From Cetorhinus maximus (lineage: Eukaryota), in the NCBI RefSeq assembly GCF_964194155.1, contig NC_135901.1:11408001-11472000 (forward strand): a DNA stretch of 64,000 nt. The letters run 5' to 3'. Shown here piece by piece: positions 1-64,000 of the stretch. The stretch's first letter is position 1, and every line of letters begins with the position of its first letter. A model generated the notes under the pieces. That model was given only the letters and a program-made list of their open reading frames with translations. It did not search any database and was not told where the DNA came from. The translations under genes and the position numbers were made by a program.

Positions 1-108
1 GTGACGGCAATTATGTTCTGACAGGTCAGATGATTGGCTGAAGCCTCGTCCACACACAGAACACGTGTACGGTTTCTCCTCACTGTGAACAGTGCTTTTT
101 CCTTCCAT
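1..108 (-). CDS. C2H2 zinc-finger gene (ZNF-A), 5' part; runs off window start
   Basis: Minus strand from ATG at 108 reads [36 protein letters not shown]. Splice acceptor ttcacag|ggtattagaag at ~217, same context as paralogs at 34260 and ~44570. Confidence 0.8.
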
Positions 109-387
109 GTTCAAAATCCAATGATATTCAGGTTATGATAAATTGGGCGACTCTGTCAGATTCTGATGTGATATTTGGTTTGAGTTTCCCGACTGCAAAT
201 CCTCTCCTTCTAATACCCTGTGAAATTGATTTAAAACAGAAAAAGTGAGAGAGAGAGAACCCACAAAAACAGGTTGTGAAATTGAGCTGAATGAATCTGG
301 TAATTTGTGGGGCCGCCACCAGGAAAAAGAGACCATGAAAACTGCTGGATTGTCCTAAAAACCCAACTGGTTCACTAATATCCTTCA

Positions 388-642
388 GAAACATAGAAAT
401 TAGGAGCAGGAGTAGGCCATTCAGCCCTTTGAGCCTGCTCCACCATTCAATATGATCATGGCTGTTTCTCTATCTCAACGCCATATTCTTGCTTTCTCTC
501 CAAACCCCCTGATGCCCCTAATATCCAAAAAATGATCAATTTCTTCCTTGGCTATACTCAGTGACCCGGCCTCCACAGGCTTCTGTGGTAGAGAATTCCA
601 CAGGTTGACCACCCTCCGAGTGAAGACATTTTTCCTCATCTC
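388..642 (-). mobile_element. CR1-clade LINE 3' end fragment
   Basis: agaaacatagaaattaggagcaggagtaggccattcagccc...: reverse complement of a CR1-type 3'UTR; same motif at ~28590, ~28725, ~53920. Confidence 0.7.
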
Positions 643-729
643 AGGGAAGGGAACCTGCTACGTGGTCTATGCCCACTCAAGACTCTGTCCACAAATTTCA
701 AAATTGTGCCTGAACACTGAGGTCTGGGT

Positions 730-1745
730 TATTTATATGTATCAGGAACAGCACGGGTCCGAACACTGACTCCTGGGGAACTCCGTTCTTAAACTTCCTC
801 CAGTCTGAAAAACATCCATTAACCATGACTCTCAGTTTCCTGTCACTCAGCCAATTTCGTATCCATGTTGCTGCTGTCCCTTTTATCCCATGAGCTATAA
901 TCTTTGCTCACAAGTTTGTTGCATGGTACTTTATCTAATGCCATTTGGAAGTCCATGTAACACAACATTAACAGCATTACCCTGAACAACACTTTCTGTT
1001 ACCTCATCAAAAACCTAAAGCAACTTAGTTAAACGTGATTTTCCCTTAACAAATCCATGCTGGCTTTCCTTAATTAACCCACATTTTCTCAAGTGACTAT
1101 TAAATATATCCTGAATGACCATTTCTGGAAGGTTCCCCAACACCGAGATTAAACTGACTGGTCTGTAGTTGCTGGGCTTCTCTTTACACCTTTTTTGAAC
1201 AAAGGTGTAACGTTTGCAATTCTCCAGTCCCTGTGTCAGCAACTCTGAATCTCAGGAAGACTGGAAAATTATGGCCAGCGCTTCCACAATTTCCACTCTC
1301 ATTTCCCCTCAGTATCCTTGGATGCATCTCATCCAGTCCTGGGGTTTTGGCAACTTTGTCAGACAGACTATCCAATATCTCCTCCTTATCAATTTTAAAC
1401 CCCACAAGGGTCTGAACTATCTCCTCTTTCACGATCACCTGTGCAGCAGGAAAAGGCAGATGCAAAATATTAATTTAATACTTCATCCATGCCCCCTGCC
1501 TCCATGCATAAATCACCTCTTTGGTTCCTAATTGCCTCCGCTCCTCCTTTTACCACCGTTTTACTATTTACATGCCCATGGAAGACTTCTTGATTGATTT
1601 CTATGTTTGCTTTCAGTCTCTTTTTATGCTCTCTTTGCTTTTCTTATTTGGTTTTCCAAATCCCTCTGAACCTTCTCTATTCATCCTGGTTCTTGGTTTT
1701 ATTATCCAGCTGACATGTGTCATAAGCACACTTTTTCTCCTTTAT
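730..1745 (-). mobile_element. CR1 LINE RT fragment, degenerate
   Basis: Broken ORFs with KTPGLDEMHPRIL, NYRPVSLISVLG, ESQHGFVKGKSRLT motifs. Confidence 0.85.
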
Positions 1746-1960: not shown

Positions 1961-2213
1961 GATAAAAGCAAAAAAACTGCGGGTGCTGGAAAACTGAAAC
2001 AAAAATAAAAATACCTGGAAAAACTCAGCAGGTCTGGCAGCATCTGCGGAGAGGAACACAATTAACGTTTCGAGTCCGTATGACTCCTCAGCAGAACTAA
2101 GCAAAAATAGTAAAGAGGTGAAATATAAAGTCTTATCTATCACCTCTTTTCTATTTATTAACTGTGTTGCTCTCCGCAGATGCTGCCAGACCTGCTGAGT
2201 TTTTGCGGGTATT
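1961..2213. mobile_element. Miniature PLE insertion made of two inverted pLTR ends
   Basis: Matches termini of the PLE at 29984-34157; exact 14-bp TSD ctgattttgctgca at 1947-1960 and 2214-2227. Confidence 0.85.
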
Positions 2214-2339
2214 CTGATTTTGCTGCACGTGTATTATGACCTCGGTGACAGAAAATGCATTATGCCTACAATATTGGAGATTCAGGTAAGCTTCAACGAT
2301 GCAAATTATCCTCACAATTTAATGAGTAAGTTTTCATAA

Positions 2340-2413
2340 TGCTTCTGCCCGGTTTCCGAACCGGGGACTTTTCGCGTGTTAGGCGAACGTGATAACCACT
2401 ACACTACAGAAAC
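2340..2413 (-). tRNA. tRNA-Val(AAC), possibly pseudogene
   Basis: GTTTCTGTAGTGTAGTGGTTATCACGTTCGCCT-AAC-ACGCGAAAAGTCCCCGGTTCGGAAACCGGGCAGAAGCA; one extra G in the T-loop/B box relative to canonical vertebrate Val-AAC. Confidence 0.8.
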
Positions 2414-2633
2414 TGCTGTGATTTTACCGAGCCTGTCCGGAATGCTAAACTGCGTTGTAACGCAGCAGCAATCTGGATCTCGAGACTGATGTAGCAATGT
2501 AATCATAAAACAGCACCATGTATCTATTTGGCTCGACCATTTTGTGATTACATTGTTACATCAGCTTGCTGCAGCGTTCCTGAGAATTGCAGCTGTATTT
2601 CATTTCTCCGCAACAAAGACCCAGATTGCTGCA

Positions 2634-2677
2634 GCCTAACACGCGAAAGGTCACCGGTTCGAAACCGGGCAGAAACG
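2634..2677 (+). pseudogene. tRNA-Val(AAC) 3' half
   Basis: gcctaacacgcgaaaggtcaccggttcgaaaccgggcagaaacg; 5' half missing. Confidence 0.85.
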
Positions 2678-4526
2678 TTATGAAAACTTACTCATTAAAT
2701 AGTGAGGATAATTTGCATCGTTGAAGCTGACCTGAATCTGCAGGCATATTGCATTTGCTCTCACCGAAGTCACAAAATTAATGCAGCAAAATCAGCACTT
2801 GCTGAGATTCCATGACACACCTGAGTGGATAGTTGTTCGTATTTCATACTCACATACTCGCAGTTCGTTTCGTCAACAAGAGGAATCAATGGGTCTTTCG
2901 ATGCAGCTTAAGAAAGTTACTCACCATGTCAAAAGTGTCTCAGTGTAATGTGTGCTCATAAAGACAGACAAAGAGGGATCAGATCTAATTAACGCATCAT
3001 TCTCAAGCCTGTTCCCTGTAAAATTCTTTGATTTTGTTGAAATGCTAACTGTTATGCTACATCTCAAATCAGACCCATATCAAATGCATTACCTGGTGAC
3101 TTACATTCTTTTGTTTGCCAGTCAAGTTTGCAATTCGATGTTGTCTATTTCAGAGAGCCTCAAGTCAACCAAGGGCATCAATATCAAGTACAGTAATAGT
3201 GAATGTTAAATAAGGTAAAAAAAATTGCTGAGAAAAGTTTATTTAATTTCTTCTGCTGTGGAGAAATGTGTTCATAATGATTGAGCAGAAAGCATTGCTG
3301 CCTAAGACATATGCTGAATCGAGTCTTCTGCATTTTGAAATTCAAACAAACTGAGGCACCAGGTGGTAACAAGTAACAAGTGACATGACCTCTCAGTCTA
3401 ACCATTGGAATCCTCCAAACATTCTGGTAGATCAACACTTTTTCCTAAACAAATATGTATTCTGTAAGATTACCTTCCCAGAACAAATGCATTTTAAACC
3501 AAATGAATGAAACAAACTATGCCAGCCTTTGATCTTGGCAGGGTTCTGTTGAACTGTAACAATGATTTCCCACTGTGATATAACACCCTTGATTAGCGGT
3601 TTGTGTAGCAAATGTAATTAGATTGTGTAAATCAACTCAGAAATAATGAGATGTTTGATCAGAAAAATAAGCACTTTTGTCAATTCGATATGAAATCAAT
3701 AGAAAAAGTAAATAATATTCATATGTATAGCTATGTAAGAAGCACTAGTCTTGAAGATTTAGATCTTCATGGCATTGGGTGAGGGAAATAGTGTTAATTA
3801 AGGTAAACTAGGCATGGAATCTGCAGAATCTCCTTTTTCAAAAGGGAATTGTGCAATTAATTGATATTCAGAATAATAACAGGTTTACTAAAAGAGGGAA
3901 GGAAATGAGATTAATTCGTTTGCTCTTAAAAAAGCTGATCGAGACAGAATTATGGAAGGGCCCCTTATGCCACAGAATGGATACATGGTAATTTGCCGTT
4001 TTATGATTACATTGTTATAAGAGTCTGTCTGCAGCATCCCTGATAATACCAGCTGAATTCAATTTCACCGAAACAGAGACCCAGAGTGCTGCTGCATGAC
4101 AGCATGGCTTAACATTCCGGATAAGCCCTGATCAGTCGGACAGCTCACCCTTCATTCTCCCCTGATTCCACTTCCTAAAGAGTTTGTAAATATTCACAGA
4201 ACTGGAGACTGGGTTTCCTGTTTTGGTTCCTCCTCTATTTTTCCGCCTGCCAACGAACAACATTTTCCAAAATTTCGTCACAATGTTCCGCCTTGTACCA
4301 TGTTCAGGGGTGAACACATTCAGTTTTGTGTAGAGAATATAAAGGCCGGGATCGTTTTCTTTAGAGCAAAGCAGGTTAAACTGCGTTTTCATGGTGTTGT
4401 TTAAAATTATTGGGCTGAGGAAGGGATCGGCGGCGGGCGGTTTGATAGAGCAGTTAGCGAGAAGCTGTTTCCACTCTCGAGGGTCAGTCACCAGAGGACT
4501 GGGGTTTATGATAATTAAATAAAGAC

Positions 4527-4790
4527 AGGCTTGCATTTATATAGCACCTTTCCCGACCAGCGGACGTCTCAAATCGCTTTCCAGTCAATGAAGGACATTG
4601 TGAAGTGTCGGCATTGTGATGTAGGAAACACGGTAGCCAATCACCGCTCAGCAAACTCCCACAAACAGCAGCGTCCTAATGAGCGGATAATGTGTATATG
4701 TGACGTTGATTGAGGGATAAATTTGACCAGGAAGCGGGGAGAACTCCCCTGCTCTTCTTTCAAATAGGCTCATGGCAGCTTTTATATTCT
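4527..4790 (-). mobile_element. DeuSINE (SacSINE1-like) fragment
   Basis: Minus strand has gaagagcaggggagttctcccc...tttatccctcaatcaac (Deu-domain-like) and an L2-type tail gtgctatataaatgcaag; family recalled from memory. Confidence 0.65.
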
Positions 4791-5256
4791 GGCGCCTAAA
4801 TCCCGTTCGTGTCTCTTCTTTCCAGGCTGAATAAGAAAGGAGGGATTTCACCATGCCTGCACTGAGCCTCGGTTTCCTCGGACCTTTTATCGCACCCTGG
4901 CAGTTTTTCCTCTTCCTCTGCTGAAGACCGATACAAAGTGATGATGTAGCGTGTCTGCTATTTCCTCTGTTTCAATTACAGTATCGCTTTCGTCTGTCTT
5001 TCGGAGCACACATTATTACTGTTATTCATCTTTGAGACGACGAGTAAGTATGTTAACCTACAGCAATAAACAGATTCATTTATTTTGCTAACTGAATGAA
5101 CTGTTAATATGTCTGTCGAGTGACAGTGGAAAGTGTTTTACAACCTTTACTGCATCGGGTGCGATAAAATGTCACTTCTGTTTTATTTGTGGGATGTTCT
5201 TTAGTATTTCGAGAAGACCAATTGTCACGTGACTGTAATACGCAAGTGCACTTAAA

Positions 5257-5303
5257 CGAGCCGGGAGACTATTTGCGTGTTAGGGCCACGACGCTAGAGA
5301 AAC
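5257..5303 (-). pseudogene. Highly decayed tRNA-Val remnant
   Basis: gtttctctagcg...cctaacacgcaaa...cccggctcg, with upstream flank (5330-5470) homologous to the tRNA-Val unit flank at 19330-19460. Confidence 0.45.
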
Positions 5304-5545
5304 CCTGCACTGCCGAATCCTCAATGGACTTGGCTGAAACGGTAACCTGTGCGGCCATGCAGCAGCACTTTGGATTTTTGTGTTGAAGAAATGGAATTCA
5401 GCTGCTATCATTAGGAATGCTGGAGACAAGACTGATTTAACAATGTCGCCATAAAATGGTACAGCACACGAGGAGACAATTCGGCCCATCGTGTCTATGG
5501 CAGCTTTTTGCAAAGAGCATTCCAATCAGTCCCAATGGCTCTTCT

Positions 5546-6447: not shown

Positions 6448-6520
6448 TCCCTTGGTAGTCCAGTGGTTAGGATTCGGCGATCTCACCGCTGCGGCCTGGG
6501 TTTGCATCCCGGTCAGAAGC
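6448..6520 (+). pseudogene. tRNA-Glu(CTC) pseudogene
   Basis: TCCCTTGGTAGTCCAGTGGTTAGGATTCGGCGATCTCACCGCTGCGGCCTGGGTTTGCATCCCGGTCAGAAGC; B box (GTTCGA to GTTTGC) and acceptor stem broken. Confidence 0.85.
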
Positions 6521-7234
6521 TAGCCGCTTAATTCTCTTGTTAAAACGACTTTATTAAGTTACTGATTGAAAACAGAAAATGCGTTACAGCTCTGCCCGAA
6601 TCAGTGGAATTGGAACTGTAGCTCCGCATCAGAAATGAAAATGTCACATGTGCGTCAGGTCGAGAACAAATGTCGTGTCGGGATGGAAAGTAAAAGAATA
6701 AAAGAGAAAGGCTGTGATCGGTTGCAAAGCACTGGCTACAACGATGTTGGTACAAGGCAGAATATGGATGGGAATGGGGCTGCTTTTACTGGAGCACTGT
6801 GTGTAGTTCTGAGGATGGCACCTGATAAGGGTCAGTATTGATCTTGGAAACACGGCAGCGCTGATCCACCAGGATGTGAGTTCTGGAATGTGAGTGGACA
6901 TTCTACCCTCTGTAAACTTGAGGTCATTCAAAACTCTGCTGCCCGTGTCTGAACTCGCAGCAAATCCCATTCCACTATCACCCCTGTGCTTTCTGACCTA
7001 CACTGGCTCCTGGACAAGTATTATCTTTCGTTTAAAATTCTCCTGCTTGTTTTCAAATCCCTCCATGTCCTTGCCCCTCTCTTTTTCTTTAGTCTCCCAG
7101 AACCCCAAAACCTTCCGAGATATCCACACTCCTTGAGATGTGGCAGATGAACGGAAATAGGAAAACGCGGGAGAGTTTATTTTCTACAATTTACCAATAA
7201 TTTTTTTTGGTTGAAATCGGGAATAATGAGGAAA

Positions 7235-7316
7235 CGTAGTCGGCAGGATTCGAACCTACGTGGGAAGATCCCAATGGATTTCGAATCCATCGCCTTAACC
7301 ACTCGGCCAAGACTAC
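7235..7316 (-). tRNA. tRNA-Ser(CGA)
   Basis: 82 nt GTAGTCTTGGCCGAGTGGTTAAGGCGATGGATT-CGA-AATCCATTGGGATCTTCCCACGTAGGTTCGAATCCTGCCGACTACG; intact A/B boxes, one acceptor-stem mismatch (T7:C66). Confidence 0.8.
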
Positions 7317-7565
7317 GGGTATGTTTACAACGTTCATATAAAATGATAGGTGGCTACAGCAGAACAGTAAGACATTCGCCCGGGCATGTTCGTGCCAGCT
7401 CTCTGGAAGAGCCAATCAGCTGGTTCCACACAAGCTCCTTTCCCCCCACAGGAATTCATATTTGTATTGTCTCTCCTTGTTCTTCCCATCAAAATAAAGC
7501 ACAGCACACTTCAACTGAAGCTTCCCCGTCTGAAGGTTTTGTGACACGGCGCGAATACCAGCCCA

Positions 7566-9307: not shown

Positions 9308-9594
9308 TTTCGCCTGCAGACCCTGTGCGCTCACCAATAGCGGTCATATAAAATCACAGAATGATTACAGAAGAGGAGGTCATTCGGCCCGTCATGTTCT
9401 TGTTGGCTCTTTGGAAGAGCAACTCAACTCTTCTCACAATGCCGGCCTTTTCCCAGTCGCCCTGTAATTAATATTCACATTTTCTCTCCTCGGGATTCCG
9501 ACCAATCGGAAACACCGCTCACTTTCCTGCTATAAATTTTAGCAGCCTCCCCTCCGCCGGAGGCGATTTGCACGAAGTCCCCAAAATGATCGGC

Positions 9595-9676
9595 TGGTAG
9601 TGGTGGGATTCGAACCCACGTCTCGTTAGAGACTGGAACTTAAGTCCAGCGCCTTAGACCGCTCGGCCACACTACC
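9595..9676 (-). tRNA. tRNA-Leu(TAA), intact
   Basis: 82 nt GGTAGTGTGGCCGAGCGGTCTAAGGCGCTGGACT-TAA-GTTCCAGTCTCTAACGAGACGTGGGTTCGAATCCCACCACTACCA; all stems pair; TTTT terminator at 9583-9586. Confidence 0.93.
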
Positions 9677-10512
9677 AAAATGCTTACAGCCAGTCATCGT
9701 CATGACTGGTATCGGCATTGAATGAGAACATAAGAAATCAGACCAGGAGTCTGCCAAAAGGCCCCTGGAGCTTGCTCAGCTACTTCATAAGATCACGGAG
9801 GATCCTGGGTCTCAACACCAATTTCCCAGCCCTTGATTCCTTTGCTGTACCTCGTCTTTGTGGCATAAGTAGTGAGTGTGTTCCGATATTAACTGAAAAC
9901 TTGGTGGTTTGACACCATCCGGCAATGATAAAAGTCTCTTCCTCACCCTCCTCCCTTCCTACTTCCATTGCCGTCACAGTTCCGGATTGTGCGCTTTGAT
10001 CTGATGAAAATATTCCCCAAACTTTGTCAGCCATCTGTTGTCCAGTATGTTCTCACACAAACAGGCGTTTAAATATTAATTTCAAACACAATGAGAATAA
10101 AAATAGTTCAACAGCGTACATACATCCAATTCATGAGAAATATAGGATTCAAAGCTGCGAATAGAAATTCATTCGCTGAATATATTAACAGAACTGGAGC
10201 ACACCATTGCACCGTGTGAAGTTCCATTTAATTTGTGGATGTTATACAACTGGTATCAAGATAACTGGTATTAAAATAATCTCAGAATCAATATAAAGAA
10301 ACGGTACAAAAAGGGAAACAGTTACAATAATAATGCAATCAACACAATAAAAACATATTAATTTGCCATAACGACAATCCAGAGATATTCGCGAATATTT
10401 TCATTTAGAGTCGATATTTCACAGACAGAATTCCACCTGGAGTCGCTCAATGGCTCCACCTTTGACCAAACCTACAGAGCAGACAGTTCAGCAGTGTCAC
10501 AGGTCAGAGCTG

Positions 10513-11900: not shown

Positions 11901-11924
11901 AATGCAGCATAGAGGGGAGAAATG

Positions 11925-14900
11925 GGTTTGGTAGGAGAATAAATGCTTTAATATGGGTTTAAAGATTGTATCCATAAATGTGCGTAGCATTAAATCTACT
12001 ACGCGATGTGTTGCGACCTTGGACTACCTAGCCAAGGTCAAAGCTGACCTGTTGTTTCTGCAGGAGTGTGCGATACCGCACCTCAGCTCCTACAGGCAAT
12101 GGTCACGATGGTGGTCCCACGGGCCATCGATCTGGTCGGGCGGAAACGACTCTCGTTCCTCCGGCCTGGGTATTCTGCTGCGGGGAGGCAACTTCACCGT
12201 CTCCGAGGTCAAGGAGGTGGTGGGCGGGCGACTCCTGGTAGCAGACGTAATGTACAAGAACGCTCCACTCCGGTTAATTAACGTGTACGGCCCGGCACAA
12301 GGGGCTGAGCGGCTGGAGGTTTTTCAGCAGCTCCCACTGCTGCTGGCGACCTCCAGGCCGGTCATTCTGGGCGGGGACTTCAACTGCATCATCGATGCGG
12401 CTGGACGATCCGGCAGGGCCGGAAGCAGATTGGACGCTACGTCCAGATCCCTGATGGAAACAGTTAAGGATGCCAAGCTGCACGACGTCTTCAGCAACCC
12501 TGCAGACGGAGCGCAGCGTAGATACACCTGGTCGCGGCCAGACGGGTCCATTCGTTCCAGGATAGACTTCCTGTTTGTGTCCCGTGCATTCACAGTCAGA
12601 TCCACCGACGTCAAGCCGGTGTTCTTCTCTGACCACTGCCTCCTACTGGCGGACTGCCACTTGGAGGAAGACCTGAGGGTGGGCAGGGGGGCATGGAAGC
12701 TAAATGTGCAACTGCTGACCCCAGAGAACATTGAGGAGCTCAAGAGGGATTACAAAGGTTGGAGAACCGTGAAACCCCTCTTTGAGTCCCTGACACACTG
12801 GTGGGAAGTGATCAAGGGAAGCATCAAGAGGTTTTTCATCCGCAAAGGCACCCAGAAAGCTAGAAAGGAACAGAGGGAAATGTCCCGACTCCAGAAAAAG
12901 ATGCAGAATCTGCTCCGGCTGCAGTCGATGGGGGTCGATGTCAAGGAGGAGCTCCAAGAGGTGAAGGGCCAGCAAGCCTCGCACTTTGCCTCGGAGGCCT
13001 CCAAGATCATCTTCCGTTCCAGAGTCCGCTCCGTGGAGCAGGACGAGACGTGCTCACGTTTCTTCTTCCAAAAGGTACACAGAGAGCGCTCTGTGATCAG
13101 CAGCCTGAAGGAAGAAGACGGCTCAGTAAAGTCATCACGGTCCGACATTCTGAGGATCAGCAAATCCTTTTATGCCGGACTGTATGACGTGAAGCCCACG
13201 GACAGCACGGCCTCCCAGTCCTTCCTGTCCTCTATCACGGAGGTCTTAGACCACAGTACGCGGGAGAGCCTAGACAAACCGCTAACTCCTGACGAACTGA
13301 CTAAGGCCCTCGAGTCCTTCGAGAAGAGTAAAACCCCCGGAAGCGACGGCCTGCCGGCGGAGTTGTATTCGGCTCTGTGGGACTTGATCGGCCCAGACCT
13401 GCTAGAAGTGTACGAGAGTATGCTCCTGGCCGGCAGCATGTCAGAATCCATGAGGAAAGGCATCATCACCCTCATCTACAAGCACAAGGGGGAAAGGGAG
13501 GAAATTAGAAATTGGCGACCCATTTCACTGTTGAATGTGGACTATAAGATTCTGTCCAAGGTCATCGCCAACCGGGTCAAATCCGCTCTGGAATTGGTGA
13601 TTCACCCTGACCAGACCTGCTCTGTGCCAGGCAGGAAGATCTCTGACAGCCTGGCGCTGCTCGGGGATACGATTGCCTATGTACAGGACAGGGGTGTGGA
13701 TACCTGCCTCATCAGCTTGGATCAGGAGAAGGCCTTTGACAGAATATCGCACACCTACATGGGGGATGTGCTCTCCAAAATGGGCTTTGGGGAGGGAATT
13801 CGAAATTGGATCCAACTGCTCTACACTAACATCAGTAGCGCAGTCTCAATCAATGGGTGGGAAACAGATAGCTTTCCGATTAAATCTGGAGTCAGGCAGG
13901 GCTGTCCTCTCTCGCCTGTCCTTTTCGTGTGCTGCATAGAACCCTTTGCCGAGTCCATCAGGAAGGATCCGGGCATAAGAGGAGTGATGATCCCAGGCAG
14001 TGGAGGCACTCAGGTAAAAGCCTCCCTGTACATGGACGACGTCGCCGTTTTCTGCTCGGATCCGCTGTCGGTGCGCAGACTGATGCACGTCTGCGACCAG
14101 TTCGAACTGGCCTCGGGAGCCAAGGTAAATCGTGGGAAGAGCGAGGCCATGTTCTTTGGGAACTGGGCTGACCGATCCTTTGTCCCCTTCACTGTCAGGG
14201 CTGACGGCCTGAAGGTGCTGGGGATATGGTTCGGAGGGACCGGGGCATGCGTTAGAAACTGGAAGGAGCGAGTGGCTATGGTGAAAAGGAAACTGGGCAT
14301 GTGGGAGCGACGCTCCCTCTCCATTGCGGGTAAGAACCTGGTCATCAGGTGTGAGGTACTCTCGCTGTTGCTGTACGTGGCGCAGGTCTGGCCCATTCCA
14401 CACTCCTGCGCGATGGCGATCACTCGAGCCATCTTCCGCTTTATCTGGAGGTCGAAAATGGATCGTGTCTGCAGGGACGCGATGTACAAGCCTCTAGATA
14501 AAGGGGGAAAAAACGTGCCCAACATCGCCCTCATACTGATGGCCACCTTTGTGTGTGGCTGCATCAAGCGGTGCGTAGACCCTCAGTACGCAAACACCAA
14601 GTGTCACTACGTGCTGAGGTTCTACCTGTCCCCGGTGTTGCGAAGGATGGGTCTGGCCACGCTGCCGCGGAACGCTCCAAGTAGTTGGACCGTGCCGTAC
14701 CACCTGTCCCTGGTGGAAAAATTTATGCAGAAAAACACCTTTGACCACAAGTCCATCAGGCAGTGGTCAGCACGTAACGTCCTAGAGGCCCTGAGGGATA
14801 AGGAGAGGGTGGACCCTGTGGGATGGTTCCCCGAGCAGACTGTCAAAGTCATTTGGCAGAATGCCTCATCGCCAGAACTTTCCAACAAGCACCAAGACGT

Positions 14901-15596
14901 AGCTTGGCTGGTGGTGAGAAAGGCCCTCCCCGTCAGATCCTTCCTACACGCCAGGAGTCTCACCCCCTCTGCACGTTGCCCTCGAGGTGGCTGTGGTGGG
15001 GAAGAGACCGTTGTTCACCTCCTTGTGGATTGTGCCTTTGCAAAGAAAGTCTGGAGAGAGATGCAGTGGTTGCTGTCGAGGTTCATCCCGAGCAGTTCTG
15101 TGACACAGGACTCTGTGCTCTACGGGCTGTTCCCAGGGACACACACCGAGACAAACATCGACTGCAGCTGGAGGATCATCAACTCGGTGAAAGACGCGCT
15201 TTGGTCTGCCCGAAACTTGTTGGTCTTCCAGCACAAAGAGTTGTCCCCGACCGATTGTTGCGGACTGGCACAATCCAAAGTCCAGGACTACGTGCTGAGG
15301 GACGCACTAAAGCTTGGGGCAGCTGCCGCAAAGGCGCAATGGGGAAGGGTCGCTGTGTAAGACCTTTCTACCACAGCGCACCGAGAGACTGGGAACTGTT
15401 TAGAGCCCCTCGGGCTGTACAGATCAAAATGAAAGGCTGTAAATGATTGTAATATTGTTTGTACTGATGCACCTGGTGATACATTTTGTAAAAGTTTAAC
15501 CTGGATTGTACCCTTGTAATGTTGTTTTTGAAATGGTTTTGAATGTGATTGAAGATTTTTTATGAATAAAGTATATTTTTACAATAAAAAAAAAAA
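11925..15596 (+). mobile_element. Tx1/L1-clade non-LTR retrotransposon, 5'-truncated just before ORF2
   Basis: Perfect 15-bp TSD tagaggggagaaatg (11910-11924, 15597-15611), AATAAA at 15565, poly(A) tail, intact ORF2. Confidence 0.95.
11953..15360 (+). CDS. Tx1-type ORF2p: APE endonuclease + reverse transcriptase + C-terminal CCHC
   Basis: 1135 aa. EN motifs SINVRS, LQEC, NVYGP, GGDFN, RIDF, SDH; RT motifs DQEKAFD, GVRQGCPLSP, YMDD; CPRGGC...HLLVDC. Confidence 0.95.
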   Translation: MGLKIVSINVRSIKSTTRCVATLDYLAKVKADLLFLQECAIPHLSSYRQWSRWWSHGPSIWSGGNDSRSSGLGILLRGGNFTVSEVKEVVGGRLLVADVMYKNAPLRLINVYGPAQGAERLEVFQQLPLLLATSRPVILGGDFNCIIDAAGRSGRAGSRLDATSRSLMETVKDAKLHDVFSNPADGAQRRYTWSRPDGSIRSRIDFLFVSRAFTVRSTDVKPVFFSDHCLLLADCHLEEDLRVGRGAWKLNVQLLTPENIEELKRDYKGWRTVKPLFESLTHWWEVIKGSIKRFFIRKGTQKARKEQREMSRLQKKMQNLLRLQSMGVDVKEELQEVKGQQASHFASEASKIIFRSRVRSVEQDETCSRFFFQKVHRERSVISSLKEEDGSVKSSRSDILRISKSFYAGLYDVKPTDSTASQSFLSSITEVLDHSTRESLDKPLTPDELTKALESFEKSKTPGSDGLPAELYSALWDLIGPDLLEVYESMLLAGSMSESMRKGIITLIYKHKGEREEIRNWRPISLLNVDYKILSKVIANRVKSALELVIHPDQTCSVPGRKISDSLALLGDTIAYVQDRGVDTCLISLDQEKAFDRISHTYMGDVLSKMGFGEGIRNWIQLLYTNISSAVSINGWETDSFPIKSGVRQGCPLSPVLFVCCIEPFAESIRKDPGIRGVMIPGSGGTQVKASLYMDDVAVFCSDPLSVRRLMHVCDQFELASGAKVNRGKSEAMFFGNWADRSFVPFTVRADGLKVLGIWFGGTGACVRNWKERVAMVKRKLGMWERRSLSIAGKNLVIRCEVLSLLLYVAQVWPIPHSCAMAITRAIFRFIWRSKMDRVCRDAMYKPLDKGGKNVPNIALILMATFVCGCIKRCVDPQYANTKCHYVLRFYLSPVLRRMGLATLPRNAPSSWTVPYHLSLVEKFMQKNTFDHKSIRQWSARNVLEALRDKERVDPVGWFPEQTVKVIWQNASSPELSNKHQDVAWLVVRKALPVRSFLHARSLTPSARCPRGGCGGEETVVHLLVDCAFAKKVWREMQWLLSRFIPSSSVTQDSVLYGLFPGTHTETNIDCSWRIINSVKDALWSARNLLVFQHKELSPTDCCGLAQSKVQDYVLRDALKLGAAAAKAQWGRVAV

Positions 15597-15954: not shown

Positions 15955-16312
15955 ATCCCTGGGATGAAGTTCAGTGAGTTCAGGAGGATGGTCACAGAGG
16001 GAATGGAGTAGGGAGAGATGATCCCTGGGGTGATGTTCAGTGAGTTCAGGAGGATGGTATCAGAGGGAATGGAGCAGTGAGAGAGGATCCCTGGGGTGAT
16101 ACTCAGTGAGTTCAGGAGGATGGTATCAGAGGGAATGGAGCAGGGAGAGAGGATCCCTAGGGTGATGGTCAGTGAGTTCAGGAAGATGGTATCAGAAGGA
16201 ATGGAGCAGGGAGAGAGGATCCCTGGGGTGATGGTCAGTGAGTTCAGGAGGATGGTATCAGAGGGAATGGAGCAAGGAGAGAGGATCCCTGGGGTGATGT
16301 TCTGTGAGTTCA
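15955..16312. repeat. 66-bp minisatellite, ~5.4 copies
   Basis: gagaggatcc-like unit starts at 16015, 16081, 16147, 16213, 16279; preceded by a G tract at 15855-15920. Confidence 0.9.
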
Positions 16313-16619
16313 GTTGTTTGTTGCATCAGGCAGGCCGCAACGCTGGGAATTTCCACGATTGTGCTACCTGGTGTTCTTATTAAACCCCAAACTGTGGTAA
16401 TAACTTGCAGGATTACTGCTTGAAAACGTGTCTGTGTCAGATCGGCCCCGGTCTCTCGGAATCATCCCTGGGTTTGTACCAAATGTTCTGTGTGCGGTAT
16501 ATGTGTATTCCTTGTTATTTATTTATGCGATATGGGAGTGGCTGTCTGGGTCAGCATTTATTGCCCATCCCTAATTGGCTTGAGAAGATGGACTGTGACG
16601 TCTCTGCCTTGTGAGTGTT

Positions 16620-16975: not shown

Positions 16976-19245
16976 TTTTATTCTCTATCTAACCCCTGCT
17001 GCACAGACCCTGGGAGTGCTTGATGGGACAGTGTAAAGGAAGCTTTCTTTCTCCACGCACTGCCCTACATCGGCCTCTGATGAAGCAGAGTCCTGCTGTT
17101 TACAATTAGCTGACAGACCAGAATATGACTGAGGCTCCCCTCGCTCAGAGGGAAAGATGTATTAACACGAATGAGTGACTCTTTCACTGACGGGTCTTCG
17201 ATTCAAGCACATCCCCACATCCCAGACAGGACTGGTGAAAAATACCTGTCTGGAAATGGTGGTGGTGGTGGTGGTGGTGGTGGGGTGGGGTGGGGTGGGG
17301 GAGAGGGGGAAACCGTGTAATAGAGAAGGTGGAGTGGTGTCAATGGGCCTTGGAGAAAGGATTTCGTCAGAACCATAGTTCGTTTCACATTAATGATTTA
17401 TTAACAATTTCAGAGAACATTTTACAGAACAGTTTATTTTAAAGTTAACCAAAGTGAATAGGAGCGTCACATTCAGAACAGAACACATTCCCTCTGAACT
17501 GCCAACTGTATGTATAATAGTAACAGACACCAGAAAGAGAAAACAGGAGCTCAACATAAAGGGAAGGGGATAATTGTGAATGAGGAATGAGAAAAGTTAT
17601 TTATTTACACGGAGAATTCAAACTACAGGGGAATTATAAGCTACAATTAGAATACAGCCATAGTTATCTCGAAAATTTCAAACAGGAAACCAGAAATACC
17701 ATCCATGTTTGTCTCAGTTACAAATTCGGAAACAAACTGAAGGTATTTCATTTTTAGAGTCACCAAGAGGGCACATTTTAAATCCGGAATACAGAGATTT
17801 CAATAAAGAGCTGATGAAAATCTACGGTGCCCAAAATTCAACCGATCACTTGGTCTGTAAAATAGGATAAAATAATGAAACAGATGTTTAAGAGCTGGGA
17901 CATTTATATTCGAGTTTTAATCAATGAAACATTGAGAGGTTTTTCATACCACTTCTGTCAGTTTGAAGTGTGACTGCTTAAACTGTGCTGTCACTCAGCA
18001 GTTCTCTGGATCTTTGGGAGAATTGGAACTCCGCTGCTTTAATTTGGAATGCTGCAAATTCATATAACAAATTCATATAAACTCATATAACAAGGTCATC
18101 ATAAAATGGCATAACACCATGCATCCATACCATGGCCCTTCCATCATCCTGTCTCTGTCAGCTTTTTAAAAGTGCAAACGAATTAATCTCAGTTTCCTTC
18201 TCTCTTTTAGTAAACCTGTTATTCTTCTGAATATCAATTAATTGCACAATTCTCTTTGGAAGGAGTTTCTGCAGATTCCATGCCCAGTTTGCCTTAATTA
18301 ACACTGTTCCCCTCACCCAATTTAGACTAAAAGATTTAGACTTGTGTTCCTTACCTAGCTATGCATATGAACATTATTTACTTATCTCTTGATTTCATGT
18401 TGAATTGACAAAAGTGCTCATTTTGGTTTGAAATAATTTTGTCCTGGGAATGAAATCTTTACAGAATACATATTTGTTTAGGAAAAAGGGCAGTGTTGAT
18501 CTACCAGAATGCTTGGAAGACTCCAATGGTTAGGCTGAGAGGTCATGACTCTTGTTACAGGAAGACAACTGTTGGTTTCCACCCGGTGCCTCAGTTTGTT
18601 TTGAGTGTCATAATGCAGAAGGCTCAGTCCAGCAAATGTCTCAGGCAGCAATCCTTTCTGCTCAATCATTAGGAACACCTTTCTCCTCCTCAGAAGACGA
18701 AATTCAACAAACTTTACTCAGCAGCATTTTTTACGTTATTCAAGATTCAGTATTAATATTTTTGTTGATATTTATTCCCTCGCTTGACTTGAGACTCTCT
18801 GGAGTATACAACAACATCGAATTGCAAACGTGACTAGCAAACAAAAGAATGCCAGACACCAGGTAATGCACTTGATATTTGTCTGATTTGAGATTTAGCA
18901 CAACAGTCAGTATTTCAACAAAATCAAAGAATTTTACAGGAAACAGATTTGAGAGTTATATCTGATCCCTCTTTGTCTGTCGTTCTGAACACACATTACT
19001 ATGAGACATCTTTGACATGGTGAGTTACTGTGTTAATCTGTATTGAAAGACGCATTCATTTCTGTTGTTGACTGAACAAACTGCTAATATGTGAGCGCAG
19101 TGAAATACGATCATTTATTTCTACTCAACTGTGTCATGAAATCGCACCACGTCTGATTTTGCTGTATTCATTTTATGATCTCGGGGTGAGAGCAACTGCA
19201 ACATAGGAGATTCAAGTAAGCTTACAAATCACCCTCACTATTGAC

Positions 19246-19302
19246 TGAACCAGGGTCCTTTCGTGTGTTGGGCGAACGTGATAACCACTTTACTACAGAA
19301 AC
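19246..19302 (-). pseudogene. tRNA-Val(AAC) pseudogene, 3' truncated
   Basis: GTTTCTGTAGTAAAGTGGTTATCACGTTCGCCCAACACACGAAAGGACCCTGGTTCA. Confidence 0.8.
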
Positions 19303-46690: not shown

Positions 46691-46849
46691 CTTCAGACGA
46701 CCGTGCAGGCTCCCTGCAACACCTTGCCGCTCTAAAGTTGACTGCCATTAACCCAAGCCTGTCACCAGCTCCTGTGTGCAGAATGAGAATGAAATCAATG
46801 AGTGAATGTTTTCTCTCCTGGTCACCGGGACCCTGAAGACGGCTCTGTT

Positions 46850-47240
46850 GCGTCACTAAGTTATTCGCGCATGCGCAATCCTACCCGCAGAACCAAGATG
46901 TCGACGGTTAACCTGGGCCTGTTCCCGGTAATAAGCCCCGGTGCTGCATACACGAGACTTGCAGCGTCTTTTTCGGGATTTGGAGCCGACATCAGCTATT
47001 TATGAAGCCTCCTCTCCCTCCCCATTGCCCCATCCAATTCCCGGCTCCCTTTGTCCCTCCGTCCCGCTGACTTTCACCCGTTGCAAGAAGCGTCTCCAGC
47101 ACTCGCAGGGTTCTTATCAAACTGACACTGCGCATGCTTTAGATACTGTCCAGTGCTGCGGCTGCGCAATGGACTCCTATAGAGGGAATAGGGCACGTTC
47201 GCTTCCGCAGGGAATGTTGGGTAAGAGAAGCGCCATTGCT
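46850..47240 (-). promoter_or_regulatory. CpG-rich promoter/first exon of ZNF-F
   Basis: ZNF143-type site 47206-47224 (minus ttacccaacattccctgcg); NRF1 gcgcatgcgc ~46867 and tgcgcatgc ~47129. Confidence 0.65.
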
Positions 47241-47534
47241 GCTCCAAATAGGAACTGGAAAAAAATGCGACCAAATTGAGATAGATTAAAAGAAAGCACA
47301 CCCACAAATCTTAGTGAATTGATGCTCTGCCATGCTCAATTTTTCGAATTGATTTAAGCTGCTGCTCTCCCCTGGAAATACACAGAAATTTTAAGGATTT
47401 TCCCACTGTTTTCTCTCTCCCCTTTCCTGAAGGTGCTGCTGATTCTGCTGAGTTCAATCCCACAGTCACTGGTTCCCCCCTCTCTCTATCCCCGATGCTG
47501 AAAATTCACAATCATTGGCACCGGTACGACAAAC

Positions 47535-52005: not shown

Positions 52006-52932
52006 TCACTTGTGAACTCGCTGGTGTCTCACCAGGTGGGATGACTGAGTGAATCCTTTCCCACACTCGGAGCAGGTAAACAGCCTCTCCCCAGTGTGAA
52101 CTCGCTGGTGTCTCAGCAGGTTGGATGCATGGACGAATCCCTTCCCACACTTGGAGCAGGTGAACGGCCTCTCCCCAGTGTGTGTACGTTGGTGTACTAG
52201 CAATTCACGTCTGCTTTTAAAGCTCTTCTCACAGTCAGAACATTTAAAAGGTCTCTGATCAGTGTGAACAAGTTGGTGTGCAGTGAGGCGGGATAATCGG
52301 GAGAATTTCTTCCCACACATAGAGCAGGTGAATGGCCTCTCCCCAGTGTGAATTCGCTGGTGTATCAGAAAGTCAGATGAATGAATGAATCCCTTCCCAC
52401 ACTCGGAGCAGGTGAACAGCCTCTCCCCAGTGTGAATGTGTTGGTGTGTCAGCAACTGGTACTTGCGTTTAAAGCTCTTCTCACAGTCAGAACATTTAAA
52501 AGGTCTCTCATCTGTGTGAACCTGTTGGTGTGCAGTGAGGTGGGATGACCGAGAGAATCCCTTCCCACACTCAGAGCAGGTGAATGGCCTCTCCCCAGTG
52601 TGAACTCTCTGGTGGGCCAGCAGGTGGGCTGACTGGGTGTATCCCTTCCCACAGGCAGAGCAGGTGAATGGCCTCTCTCCAGTATGAACTCGCTGGTGTG
52701 TCCGAAGATCTGATGAATTAATGAATCCCTTCCCACACATGGAGCAGGTGAACGGCCTCTCCTCAGTGTGAGTGAGTTGGTGTCTCAGAAGGTCAGATGA
52801 CCGAGTGAATCCCTTCCCACACAAGGAGCAGGTGAACGGTCTCTCCCCAGTGTGAGTGCGTCGATGAGTTTCCAGCTGCGACTGGTATTTGAATCCCTTC
52901 CCACAGTCCCCACATTTCCATGGTTTCTCCAT
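52006..52932 (-). CDS. C2H2 zinc-finger protein (ZNF-G), 11 fingers, 308 aa
   Basis: accATGgag at 52932 gives [10 protein letters not shown]...HQRVHK; acceptor at 53247; degenerate fingers upstream in the UTR. Confidence 0.92.
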
Positions 52933-53914
52933 GGTGCTGGTGCCCTTCTGTCTCTCCAACTTGGAAGATCAGTTGAAGCTTCGTCCACATACAGAACACA
53001 TGTACATTTTCTCCTCGCTGTGAATGGTGTGATTTCTTTTCAGGCTGTGGAACACTCACACACAGGTGTGTGTGTCTCGGTGCTTTCCCAGTCACACTGA
53101 TGTTTGAAATCTCTTCCCACGGACAAACATATTTCCTTCCGTGTTCAGAGGCCGATGATATTCAGGCCCTGATGAATCGAGTGACTCTGTCAGATCTTGA
53201 TAATTGGTTTTAGTTTCCCATCTGTAAATCTTCCCCTCCTAATGCCCTGTAAAAAAAGTTTACAGAGAATTACACAGAATATACGGAATAGACACAGGCC
53301 ATTCAGCCCAACTAGTCTCTGCAGGTCTTTATATTTCACATGCTTCTCATTCCATCCCATCTACCTCAGCTCAGTCTTTCACTTTATCTTTCTATTCCTT
53401 TTTCTCTCACGCACTTGCCTAGTTTCCTTTTGAAATTATCTCAGCTTTTTGCCACAACCACTTCCTGTGGTCGTGAGTTCCACTTTCTAACCGCTCTGAG
53501 TAAACACATTTCTCCTTATTTCCCTACTGGATTTATCAGTAACTATCTTATATTTCTGGCCCCTAGTTTTGGATTCTCCCACATCTCCACATCTACAAGG
53601 TCTCACATGGCAGACTGGGCAGAAAAATAAAACCTCATGAGATCCCAGAACAAGTTACAAGTTGGATCAAAAATAGGCTCAATGGCAGGAAGTGATGAAT
53701 GTCAGTCGATAGGTGTTTTTTTGTGATTGGAAGGCTGTTTCCAATGGGTTTTCACAGAGCTCAGTACTGGCTCCTTTATTCATGGTTTATATTATCGATT
53801 CAGACTTAAATGTCAGAACATGGATAACAATACAAAAATTGCTCTACGTTTTGTCATGAGATAGAAAGCTGGAGACTGCAGGGAGATAACAATGTACTGC
53901 TCAGGTAGGCAAGA

Positions 53915-55459: not shown

Positions 55460-55640
55460 ATGTTTCCCACAGTCACCACACTGAGACAGTTTCTCCCCGG
55501 TATTAATGTGCTTGTGTCTCGACAGGCTAGGTGATTGGCTGAATTCTCATCCACACACAGCACACATGTACGGTTTCTCCCTGTTGTAAACACTGCTTTT
55601 TCCTTCCACGTTCACAATTCTATGATATTCAGGTTAGGAT
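55460..55640 (-). pseudogene. ZNF exon-start remnant
   Basis: taacctgaatatcatagaattgtgaacgtggaaggaaaaagc.. plus one finger; ATG changed to GTG. Confidence 0.7.
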
Positions 55641-55899
55641 AACCTGCCAGTCAGTCTGGACCTACAAGACCCTGGCCTCTATGGGAGGAAGGAGACAGAG
55701 AGAGGGGGGGCAGAAGGGGCGAAGGACAGAGGTTTTATGTATCTTCAACCTGATCACAACTTTGACGAAATCTTAAAAACCCTCACCCACCACCACCTAA
55801 AAGTAAATGCTCCCCTTCTCCCCCCTGTAAAAGGAGTTTCCAAAATCCATCCCTGTCAGTCCAGGATAGAAATGCACAATATTCTCTTCTCCTGCTGAC

Positions 55900-56345
55900 A
55901 GGGATATCGGCGCATGCGCCCTGCTGCACATTGACACCGAAAAGATTGCGGCCGTTAACCCGGGCCTGTCATCAGGATCAGTCCTGCGGCTGCTGCCCCG
56001 CTTGGACTAAATGCGAGACTGGTACATTCTTACTTTTGTTCCCAGGCCTCCACTGGGTGTACATTCTTACTTTTGTTCCCAGGCCTCCACTGGGTGTTTA
56101 TGAGGCCTCCCCGCCCATTCCGCCGCCTCCATTACCGTCCAAAAATCAGCCGTTGTTCACCGGTTGCGAAGTCGAGACGACCGCCTCACTGTCGCTACAG
56201 CAACCAAGTTGCGCATGCGCCAGTTGGAACAATGCGCACGCGCCATTCACAACCCGCCACTACGCCTGTGCCAGGGTTTCCTTTAATGCGTATAGGGCAC
56301 ATTCTGTATCGTCGCGGATGCTGGGTAAGAGCCGCGCCATTGAAA
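55900..56345 (-). promoter_or_regulatory. CpG-rich promoter/first exon of ZNF-G
   Basis: ZNF143-type site 56310-56328; NRF1 gcgcatgcgc ~55910 and ~56211; 37-bp tandem duplication at ~56023-56097. Confidence 0.65.
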
Positions 56346-56885
56346 CATGACATTGTTGAATAGAAAACTATGATTTGTGATCGGATTACGATGGAGCCAT
56401 GGGGCCAAGCTAGAAAACTATTAAATTAATTTATACAGCAAATAATGTGGCCCTCCACCATAATTCTGTCATCGGTGTAATTAACAACAGAACAAACCAC
56501 TACAGTTAAGTGTGAACTCACTGGGGCCTCAGCAGCTTGGAAGGTGAACAAGTGATTTTTCTTCCCCATGCATGGAACATTTAAACCATGTCTTGCCTGG
56601 AAGAGTGCACCCATTGTGGATAAAGTCCTTTGAACTTTTAAAGCTGCAGTGTGAACAGGTGGAAAAACTGAATAAATCCCATTGAACGCTTGTAGCATCT
56701 GAGTGGTCTCTCTCTGGAGTGACTGTGCTGCTGTGTCAGTAAATGGAATAACTGAGTGAATCCATTTCCACGTTCAGCTGGTGAATGATCTATTCATGGG
56801 TGTGAATTGACCCATCAGTTTCCAGCTCAGATGGGGATCTCAAACCCTTCTGATGATGAATTCCAGATTCTCAACATGTTCCCAG

Positions 56886-62315: not shown

Positions 62316-62429
62316 TCGATAATCAATTGCAGGGTTATGGAGAAAAGGCGGGACAGTGTGATTAGCTGAGTGATTCTCGCAGATAAGACACGCCAGTTGT
62401 CCTCCTTCTCTGGTGGAACCATTGTTTGA

Positions 62430-62780
62430 TTCTTACGCTAATGGCGGCCGAAATTCCCACAATCCCCATGCGCCCCAGAAACCGCTCTATCCAACTCGCT
62501 CCTTTCCCCAGGCGCTGAGAGTGCGCATGCTCCCCAGGGCCCGCCGCGGGGCATTCTGGGAGGCTCGTTTGTTGTGAGTCGGACTCGGTGGAAACGGGAG
62601 AAGAAACCTGGAAGCGGCGGCGAGGATGGGGGAGGCGCTGCAGCATTGCTTTAATGGGCAGCCTCGACCCCCAGCCCGGGGAGATCACCGCACGGCCGCC
62701 GGGCCCGGCCGCTCTCATTCGGCCTCTGAGAGCCGCACTCGCTGCTCCTGAGGCTGCGCTCGCCCCCCGCTCAGTTTCTC
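62430..62780 (+). promoter_or_regulatory. CpG-island promoter/first exon of ZNF-H
   Basis: YY1-like aatggcggc, two ZNF143-type sites (62454-62471, 62545-62562), NRF1-like tgcgcatgc. Confidence 0.65.
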
Positions 62781-63551
62781 CATTGAATCCTGTTTCTCCC
62801 AACTCAGATTCACCGCCTCATTTTCTTTTCTTCCTCTGAGCCCCTGAACTCCATCTGACAGGGTCATGTTGGAGAGCGGGCATTGACTGTCCTGGGAAAC
62901 AACAGCAAGAGGAGCTCAGAGGCCGGAGGGGCAAAGGAGCAGCGAGTTCAGTCACCAATCGGGGGGGATTGAGGACTGGACCCTGAGTCAGTCAGTCAGG
63001 GGAGTCAGAGTGAACCCCTGGGGAATCAGTCATTTCTGAAAAATTAAATGGGTATCTCTTTTATCAACAACACAATTTAACATTTGTCAGTTTAATTTTT
63101 TTATATTCTTTGTTATCTCAATCCTAGGACATCGCTGCAGGAATTCCTCAAGACAGTATCCTAGGCCCAACCATCTTCAGCTGCTTTATCAATAACCTTT
63201 TTTCCATCATAAGTCAGACTTGGGAATATATTGCCGTTCCTTCATTGTCGCTGGGTCGAAATCCTGGAACTCCCTTCCTAACAGCGCCGACACCACATGG
63301 ACTACAGCAGTTCAAGGAAGTGAACAGGAAGATTTGCTGACAGGAAACTCAAACCAAAAATCACGTCAAAATCTGACAGATTCACTCAATACATCAGGTG
63401 CTGGATATCATTGAACCTTTAATGTAGAAGGAGAAATGTTTTAACCAATTGCACAGCGTGAAAAAACATCTAATCATTCACAGCGGGGATAAACTGTGTA
63501 AGAGGTTTGGTCTGACCATCCAACATGGACAGCCACGAGGACACCGGCACC

Positions 63552-64000
63552 ATGGAGAAACCGTGGAAATGTGGGGACTGTGGGAAGGGATTTGGCTCCC
63601 CGTCAAAGCTGGAAATTCATCAACGCAGTCACACTGGGGAGAGGCCGTTCACCTGCTCCGTGTGTGGGAAGGGATTCACTAGTTCATCCAACCTTCTGAG
63701 ACACCAGCACATTCACACTGAGCAGAGTTCAGTCATCTGCTCCGTGTGTGGGAAGGCAATCGGTCATTCATCAAACTTTCTGAGGCACCAGCAAACTCAC
63801 AGTGGAGAGAGGCCATTCACCTGCTCTGTGTGCGGGAAGGGATTCACTCAGTCATCCTACCTGCTGACACACCAGCGCATTCACACGAGGGAGAGACCGT
63901 TCATCTGCTCCTTGTGTGGAGAGGGATTTAACCAATTATCCAGGCTTCTGAATCACCAGAGAATTCACACTGGGGAGAGCCCATACACCTGCTTTATCTG
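63552..64000 (+). CDS. C2H2 zinc-finger gene (ZNF-H), runs off window end
   Basis: accATGgag at 63552; open frame [27 protein letters not shown]... with 5+ fingers to the window end. Absent from the ORF track because there is no stop. Confidence 0.88.
   Translation, partial: MEKPWKCGDCGKGFGSPSKLEIHQRSHTGERPFTCSVCGKGFTSSSNLLRHQHIHTEQSSVICSVCGKAIGHSSNFLRHQQTHSGERPFTCSVCGKGFTQSSYLLTHQRIHTRERPFICSLCGEGFNQLSRLLNHQRIHTGESPYTCFI

Follow-up and report, generated by a model that had tools for sequence, protein, structure and literature searches.

Introduction

Zebrafish 4q carries the FiNZ-ZNFs, C2H2 zinc-finger (ZNF) genes that repress young transposable elements (TEs), and across animals ZNF number tracks retroelement number independently of the accessory domain; Wells et al. 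leave open the mechanism of FiNZ repression and the need for such a domain (PMC10547256). In cartilaginous fishes, KRAB families are reported as lost or absent (PMC8455134, PMC11603059). Zinc-finger clusters of many recent duplicates lie on chromosomes 13 and 17 of Scyliorhinus canicula, with histone genes adjoining on chromosome 13 (PMC11979771), and open reading frames (ORFs) with at least five fingers number 3,586 in S. canicula, 1,851 in Carcharodon carcharias, 1,223 in Amblyraja radiata, and 475 in Callorhinchus milii (PMC10547256 supplement). Here we describe a C2H2 gene family from a 64,000-nucleotide stretch of Cetorhinus maximus DNA (contig NC_135901.1, positions 11,408,001 to 11,472,000; hereafter the window), which lies at 11.41-11.47 Mb of the ~65-Mb chromosome C24.

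An earlier note on this DNA had proposed an effector-less tandem cluster undergoing birth and death among TEs and tRNA genes. We found that the intact genes have one coding exon, whose reading frame begins at an ATG in strong context and stops after the final finger, with a decayed leader ahead of that ATG, and that the family has spread over the whole of C24 by segmental duplication with copy-specific loss. The family is real, large, and under-described, and it fits a lineage-specific clustered C2H2 expansion; it is a chromosome-wide set of tandem genes and is likely shark-specific. Our preferred reading, to which we assign a probability of about one-half, is that the genes provide a repertoire of bare DNA-binding fingers. 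By analogy with the systems above, their targets would probably be repeats, on which they would act either by simply occupying them or with the help of a partner bound to the fingers.

Results

Finger genes and the fossil leader

Six-frame translation of the window revealed seven full-size C2H2 arrays, designated A to G, of which C, E, F, and G were intact with 10 to 14 fingers each. The arrays carry canonical TGERP-type linkers, and each tandem array lies in a single exon, as in KRAB-ZFP genes. The earlier count of at least seven full-size loci plus remnants holds for the arrays and the remnants, but of the five loci called open (against two pseudogenes) the fifth, A, has lost its last finger. 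The finger exons and remnants are as follows.

1-217, minus strand: start of the finger exon of gene A (acceptor 217, ATG 108); the ORF leaves the window at its left end and has 10 fingers and then a frameshift, with the final finger lost
24245-25560, plus strand: finger exon of gene B, a pseudogene with a frameshift close to the start and internal stops
34260-35574, plus strand: finger exon of gene C (acceptor 34260, ATG 34369, stop 35574); 401 amino acids, 14 fingers
42560-43456, minus strand: gene D, a pseudogene with a long fossil leader, many stops, and frameshifts; it starts ~135 bp behind the stop of gene E
43591-44569, minus strand: finger exon of gene E (acceptor 44569, in-frame TAA, ATG 44460); ORF 44460-43591, 289 amino acids, 10 fingers
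52006-53246, minus strand: finger exon of gene F (acceptor 53246, 314-nucleotide fossil leader, ATG 52932); ORF 52932-52006, 308 amino acids, 11 fingers
63323-64000, plus strand: gene G (fossil leader from 63323, ATG 63552), which runs past the window end to a stop at 64394, 394 bases beyond it; 280 amino acids, 10 fingers
39470-39732, plus strand: finger remnant
55464-55824, minus strand: remnant leader and finger (finger part 55464-55642) behind an orphan acceptor cassette
45997-46113, minus strand: orphan acceptor cassette copy with an acceptor-like site at 46042, possibly an extra non-coding exon

A homologous acceptor opens every finger exon in the window except that of G, where a repeat fragment takes its place. 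The leader between acceptor and ATG translates as an acidic stretch of ~42 codons, to which the long type (D and F) adds up to three dead fingers; that of gene C is 109 nucleotides long with two in-frame stops, and that of gene F consists of linker and dead fingers. Two start types recur in the family. One reads MEKPWKC, and in the long-leader type the ATG has taken the place of Gly in a TGEKP-like linker. A start-motif pattern picked 37 intact non-redundant ORFs out of 99, and every one of them has an A at -3 and a G at +4. Intact proteins end right after the final finger, and a polyA-like signal follows 125 to 141 nucleotides downstream in C, E, and F (125 in C).

We examined ~1.06 Mb of C24, which contained 72 ORFs with at least five fingers. 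An acceptor could be recognised for 38 of them, and 37 of these 38, A, C, E, and F included, have in-frame stops ahead of the array; in the 38th, the leader is read in a different frame. The count leaves aside the 34 ORFs for which no acceptor was matched, and in broken genes some of the counted stops lie within the array. Stops between acceptor and fingers block the fusion of an upstream effector exon. Across 46 copies, the leader showed no codon periodicity: its divergence was 0.123, 0.136, and 0.147 at codon positions 1, 2, and 3, close to the 0.107 of the neighbouring intron sequence. Of its 81 indels, 63 shift the frame. The leader is decayed coding sequence that now behaves as non-coding.

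The first leader stop is itself widely shared: a codon starting with T occupies its position in 558 genome matches versus other codons in 47, and the 100 matches listed comprise 93 TGA, 6 TAA, and 1 TGG. This uniformity, together with the C that follows the UGA, the many tRNA-Sec loci of sharks (bioRxiv 2025.06.08.657570), and the ARAGORN call of one such gene on C24, could be taken to mean that the shared stops are recoded by readthrough or selenocysteine and yield a longer N-terminus. We consider this highly improbable and rejected it on the frameshifts that dominate the leader and on the UAA variants; further TAA and TAG stops also speak against it, and the CGA or AGA that some copies carry at this position fits CpG decay. 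The tRNA-Sec(TCA) call lies next to a tRNA-Ser at C24:50.60 Mb (L097). We inspected 17 loci for a leader open from acceptor into array, namely 12 on C24 where the first stop is missing and 5 on C22 or C32, and found none.

A profile of the leader matched 39 proteins among 1.84 billion. Ten of these were looked up, and the eight that were named are all shark proteins, in line with the chondrichthyan origin suggested before. The N-terminal parts of the 30 homologues read (of 39) have no shared upstream domain and consist of intron read-through, promoter-element, and repeat-like pieces only. In Pristiophorus and Heterodontus, gene models terminate at the residue of the first leader stop, so the lesion is likely old. 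When the N-terminal 60 residues of E served as query, two weak and uninformative matches among four candidates came back. One RefSeq-type model from Pristiophorus (P0002) joins the fossil leader onto a frame resembling histone H2A, which suggests either histone genes adjoining the finger family or a chimeric annotation. The fossil leader marks the ancestral form of the gene and explains junk N-terminal extensions in shark annotations.

Searches for an effector domain

A Pfam scan of C, E, and F returned C2H2 families and weak zinc-ribbon, Cys-rich, and DUF cross-hits but no KRAB, SCAN, or BTB, in agreement with the earlier remark that none was visible. None of 115 stop-free frames of at least 40 amino acids that lie ahead of genes B, C, E, F, and G reached the Pfam cut-off (the 149 frames of A were not scanned), and neither KRAB, SCAN, nor BTB was found upstream of these five genes. 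Two hits in the upstream frames, Met_synt_B12 and an ABM-like one, were below the cut-off (E about 0.007) and were taken as chance.

The wider searches agreed. Across the 3.99-Gb genome, with 150 of 152 candidates scored, KRAB (PF01352) had one match, at C34:9123034-9123144 (L031), which we take to be close to the KRAB-encoding exon in PRDM9 or SSX. No SCAN was found on C24 among the best 150 of 4,987 genome candidates scored, and zf-AD had three genome matches, none on C24. BTB had no match over the cut-off in upstream frames of the window, and no genome-wide BTB search was made. Gene structure speaks against a FiNZ coding exon, through the leader stops and the non-coding evolution of the leader; no FiNZ profile was searched. 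The window family is not a KRAB-, FiNZ-, SCAN-, or ZAD-ZNF family, and the effector-less architecture that had been proposed stands, with stops in 37 of 38 testable arrays and a single genome-wide KRAB match on another chromosome. Thousands of SCAN-like candidates are scattered over most chromosomes; presumably these are gag of long terminal repeat elements.

First exons and splicing

Five of the genes have a CpG-rich element upstream, each with a donor-like GT and with an observed/expected CpG ratio of 0.75 to 0.90 versus 0.43 over the window.

22880-23280, plus strand: putative promoter/first-exon-like element of B, donor-like GT at 23006
27300-27720, plus strand: promoter/first-exon-like element of C, donor-like GT at 27514
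46800-47260, minus strand: promoter/first-exon-like element of E, donor-like GT at 47077
55850-56350, minus strand: promoter/first-exon-like element of F, donor-like GT at 56160
62420-62900, plus strand: promoter-like element of G

No such element was found for A or D, so the claim that each locus has a non-coding CpG first exon fits B, C, E, F, and G, where it is inferred, but not the other two. The best 40 genome matches of the element of C all lie on C24 or on contigs of unplaced size. A GCGCATGC/GCATGCGC core occurs in the elements of C, E, F, and G, with a variant in B, and a GCCGCCATCTT-like motif in those of E, F, and a neighbour; we presume that these motifs correspond to NRF1 and YY1 sites. 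Two heavily decayed finger-like remnants, at 22393-22670 and 56483-56790, are homologous to each other; each lies just upstream of the element of B or F, respectively, and faces the other way, which may point to former head-to-head gene pairs.

The evidence on splicing comes from contigs that are only guessed to be RNA, derive from related copies or species, and are unsuited to locating starts. In contigs of two studies, position 7495 of the right-hand neighbour stretch (L011), which is followed by a GTGAGT donor, is joined to the region around the finger-exon acceptor of the first gene right of the window (joint reported at 8348, acceptor at 8355). The joint indicates that the acceptor is used and that additional non-coding exons exist. 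The exon-like piece behind it (L011:7409-7495, ~7.4 kb right of the window) is 87 nucleotides long, its 5' edge being inferred, and has stops in all three frames. The proposed structure of a first exon and one finger-only coding exon is therefore right in its single coding exon, but "two exons" is too simple given the extra internal non-coding exon of this neighbour. Over window positions 22500-36200, repeats and fingers swamped the contig signal, and no usable joint was obtained.

In cyprinids the effector comes from a short coding exon, and such an exon might have escaped annotation here and provide something FiNZ- or KRAB-like; in our judgment this is very unlikely. Such an exon could be small, since FiNZ is 28 amino acids long with no similarity to known domains (PMC10547256), and frames of at least 40 amino acids could miss it in the Pfam scan. 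The acidic leader resembles the remnant of a linker behind an exon of this kind, a few copies keep an open leader, and an element near 149.5 kb in window-relative coordinates has ATGs open to its donor in matching phase (the leader of its own gene has stops). Yet the leader stops of 37 of the 38 arrays, A, C, E, and F included, leave no read-through from such an exon, the 30 leader homologues read (of 39) have no upstream domain in common, and the sole upstream exon with contig support, described above, is closed in three frames.

Spread over chromosome C24

The family extends far beyond the window. The best 40 matches of the gene F leader lie on C24, where they stretch from 0.4 to 61.6 Mb, or on small contigs. 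When C24 was sampled at even spacing in 40 pieces of 10 kb, 21 contained fingers, versus 0 of 19 on other chromosomes (p=3e-5). The 400 kb so sampled held 23 ORFs with at least five fingers, corresponding to ~3,700 on C24 (bootstrap 2,300 to 5,400), a figure that split pseudogenes inflate as a count of genes. The first 14 Mb gave no finger ORFs in nine samples, though the window lies there. An exact 32-base start motif had 197 matches, and 99 of the first 100 listed, in contig order, were on C24. What had been called a tandem cluster is a tandem family, but one that spans the whole chromosome instead of being local. Family members off C24 were seen on C22 (10.58, 29.1, and 38.0 Mb) and C32 (9.65 and 15.67 Mb), some of them intact and with the fossil leader kept.

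tRNA calls occurred in 5 of the 40 C24 samples versus one call in the 19 controls, and the family is concentrated on one chromosome alongside RNA genes, as in the definition of FiNZ-ZNFs. Repeat cover (hits to control stretches) was 30% on C24 and 28% on control chromosomes. The transposon-rich setting is therefore genome background: retroelements do lie in the window, but the phrase "among TEs" does not set C24 apart.

One way in which the family has grown is by copying of long blocks, as in this part of the window.

21496-49350, no strand: ~27-kb block holding genes B to E, with copies at 3.5, 6.4, and 8.3 Mb of C24 (92 to 96% identical by piece, about 96% in all)

Gene fates differ among the four blocks. 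C is intact in the window and split by a stop in all three copies; the array of B is broken in the window and open over 10 to 12 fingers in the copies, which lack its start; and E is open in all four. Only 4 of 26 F-family copies are full length. The birth and death that had been proposed is borne out by these copies and their fates.

That the arrays are transposon cargo has next to no chance of being correct. The common front-end cassette includes intron sequence, and the few copies on C22 and C32 might suggest mobility, but the spread proceeded via long segmental blocks, and introns and polyA-like signals are present. We rejected cargo on the confinement to one chromosome, as no dispersal over all chromosomes was seen.

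Contact residues and selection

Among the 21 finger positions, variability is greatest at -1, +3, and +6, with 227 fingerprints in 320 distinct fingers, which upholds the statement that DNA-contact residues vary. Canonical TGERP linkers with variation at base contacts are the signature of a DNA-binding array. C2H2 fingers can also bind RNA and protein, and one could suppose that the products do so here, or that the transcripts themselves matter as regulated or small-RNA substrates. The absent effector domain would suit such a role, and in zebrafish ribosomes stall on finger mRNAs, which Znf598 degrades (PMC11620358). With linkers of the canonical type and variation concentrated at base-contact positions, however, we hold this to be unlikely.

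We estimated dN/dS by parsimony in eight small families, with fixed transition and CpG weights and with partly broken copies included. Structural positions gave 0.17, contact positions 0.42 (0.26-0.63), linkers 0.55, and the C-terminal helix 0.71. A codon model on seven F genes gave 0.40 overall, with 0.47 at contact sites (p=0.12 against dN/dS of 1) and 0.47 at other sites (p=2e-5). The finger frame is under purifying selection, and recent duplicates carry no diversifying signal. The positive selection at helix contacts for which a dN/dS check had been proposed did not appear, either pooled (0.42) or in the largest family (0.47), both being class-wide estimates of low power. The earlier note would have given up its proposal on seeing neither positive selection nor TE-binding enrichment, and the first half of that outcome was observed; no test made here supported the TE control that it proposed.

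These results bear on a reading in which most of what we see is drift: an unstable chromosome prone to duplication amplifies a finger cassette, and the retained subset consists of ordinary, partly redundant transcription factors or chromatin binders without a special relation to TEs. Several observations point that way. The 27-kb blocks were copied whole, introns and dead genes included, and tRNA genes were copied along, the Glu-Ser-Leu trio of the window recurring at 1.0 Mb of C24. In the F family, 22 of 26 copies fall short of full length. Evolution at contact sites does not differ from that at the remaining non-structural sites, and the repeat cover of C24 equals that of controls. However, overall dN/dS is about 0.4 to 0.5 even in families that include dying copies, the strong start context is kept in every intact ORF, variety peaks exactly at the three contact positions, and the family is kept in many sharks. 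We regard drift as the main alternative to our preferred reading, possible but less probable.

Other elements of the window

Four tRNA genes were called by ARAGORN, three of them at the Rfam threshold, in agreement with the tRNA genes noted earlier. Three further tRNA-Val genes lie 5 to 8 kb left of the window, and a ~1.5-kb unit near tRNA-Val recurs in several diverged copies (70 to 86%) at 2213-4121 and 17978-22261. The remaining features are listed with them.

2340-2413, minus strand: tRNA-Val(AAC), ARAGORN and Rfam threshold
6449-6520, plus strand: tRNA-Glu(CTC), ARAGORN only, below the Rfam threshold
7234-7317, minus strand: tRNA-Ser(CGA), ARAGORN and Rfam threshold
9592-9677, minus strand: tRNA-Leu(TAA), ARAGORN and Rfam threshold
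11935-15357, plus strand: open 1141-amino-acid ORF of a non-LTR (non-long terminal repeat) retrotransposon with endonuclease, reverse transcriptase, and zf-RVT
29979-33150, minus strand: broken fragments of a reverse transcriptase/GIY-YIG-type element in the intron of C
15955-16313, 23290-23487, and 40024-40387: minisatellites with periods of 66, 69, and 23

The non-LTR ORF is presumably Tx1/L1-like. Its element (11917-15592) has a 98.5% copy on C22, and similarity starts at the same base, ~35 nucleotides ahead of the first ATG; the element may be ORF2-only, or both copies may be cut alike. A weak GIY-YIG match lies on a piece at 20662-21018 homologous to the reverse transcriptase/GIY-YIG fragments, which we assume to be Penelope-like.

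Discussion

We return to the preferred reading of a bare-finger repertoire directed at repeats. A founder gene would have lost its N-terminal part, a new start would have arisen (replacing the Gly of a TGEKP-like linker where the leader is long), and copies would have multiplied along one chromosome. The finger arrays may bind repeats sequence specifically, and those repeats could be repressed or stabilised by occupancy or via a partner docking on the fingers, with no fused domain. As a more tentative extension, which we hold doubtful, this could be a third vertebrate ZNF system of repeat control with its parts split: thousands of bare arrays on one dedicated chromosome would give specificity, a common partner docking on fingers or linkers would silence, neither KRAB nor FiNZ would be needed, and the founder's N-terminal loss would predate the split of the main shark lineages.

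Several observations weigh against repeat control by bare fingers. The contact codons of the eight small families were without positive selection, although with 22.5 nonsynonymous changes the power is low, and in the largest family contact and non-contact sites evolve alike. Most copies are broken, which also fits largely neutral churn, and C24 is no richer in repeats than the controls. Joints from first exon to finger exon were not seen in the supposed RNA contigs, a result that counts neither for nor against them. Some copies may have a fused N-terminus: one C24 copy at 44.2 Mb, outside the 38 acceptor-matched arrays, keeps an open leader, and an open leader is fused to fingers in four shark gene models (P0001, P0012, P0024, and P0036), so the stop block is general but not absolute. 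In the literature searched we found no known mechanism of silencing by bare fingers, and to our knowledge every well-studied large TE-controlling zinc-finger family carries a repressor-like domain such as KRAB or FiNZ. As a detail of the 44.21-Mb copy (L161 ~1470, minus strand), its leader runs in frame into seven fingers, and CpG-type elements lie 1.5 to 3 kb upstream.

The thousands of effector-less copies amount to a natural test: either bare fingers police repeats, or huge ZNF expansions persist without doing so. Because start and leader sequences are common to the family, one antisense reagent could address hundreds of copies, as for FiNZ genes. The literature searched, with most subscription journals outside it, held no description of the effector-less structure, the fossil leader, or the function of the family.

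Comparison with known zinc-finger families

The cyprinid FiNZ-ZNFs of zebrafish 4q resemble the C24 family in being lineage-specific tandem C2H2 genes that number in the hundreds to thousands, are concentrated on one chromosome where RNA genes also lie, and each have an upstream exon and one finger exon, and in their fast turnover and variable contact residues, as the passages of Wells et al. 2023 describe them (PMC10547256). According to the same passages, FiNZ is a 28-amino-acid acidic domain on a coding exon, whereas stops block upstream fusion in the C24 family; positive selection occurs in 4 of 7 FiNZ clades, whereas none was found in recent C24 duplicates; and TE repression was seen on FiNZ knock-down, whereas the C24 family is known from its sequence (PMC10547256).

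Like the C24 family, the KRAB-ZFP clusters of lobe-finned fish and tetrapods are made up of poly-finger genes undergoing birth and death, with a single finger exon, CpG promoters, and many pseudogenes. In contrast, the C24 family has no KRAB exon, the genome's sole KRAB match being the one on C34. The tetrapod "ZNF-only" polydactyl models, in the passages of Liu et al. 2014, are likewise arrays without BTB, SCAN, or KRAB and number hundreds per genome, with 1026 in zebra finch and 473 in frog (PMC3971581). Most human ZNF-only models are of old, conserved type, 136 of the 212 being shared across tetrapods (PMC3971581), whereas the C24 genes form one young-looking family that has a common fossil leader and fills a chromosome.

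For the shark clusters, the passages concerned (PMC11979771, PMC10547256 supplement) give no gene structure, effector statement, fossil leader, or function. Neither sharks nor cartilaginous fishes are mentioned in the main text of PMC10547256. As described, these clusters consist of many recent duplicates, as the C24 family does, and the catshark clusters and the C24 family are likely the same family.

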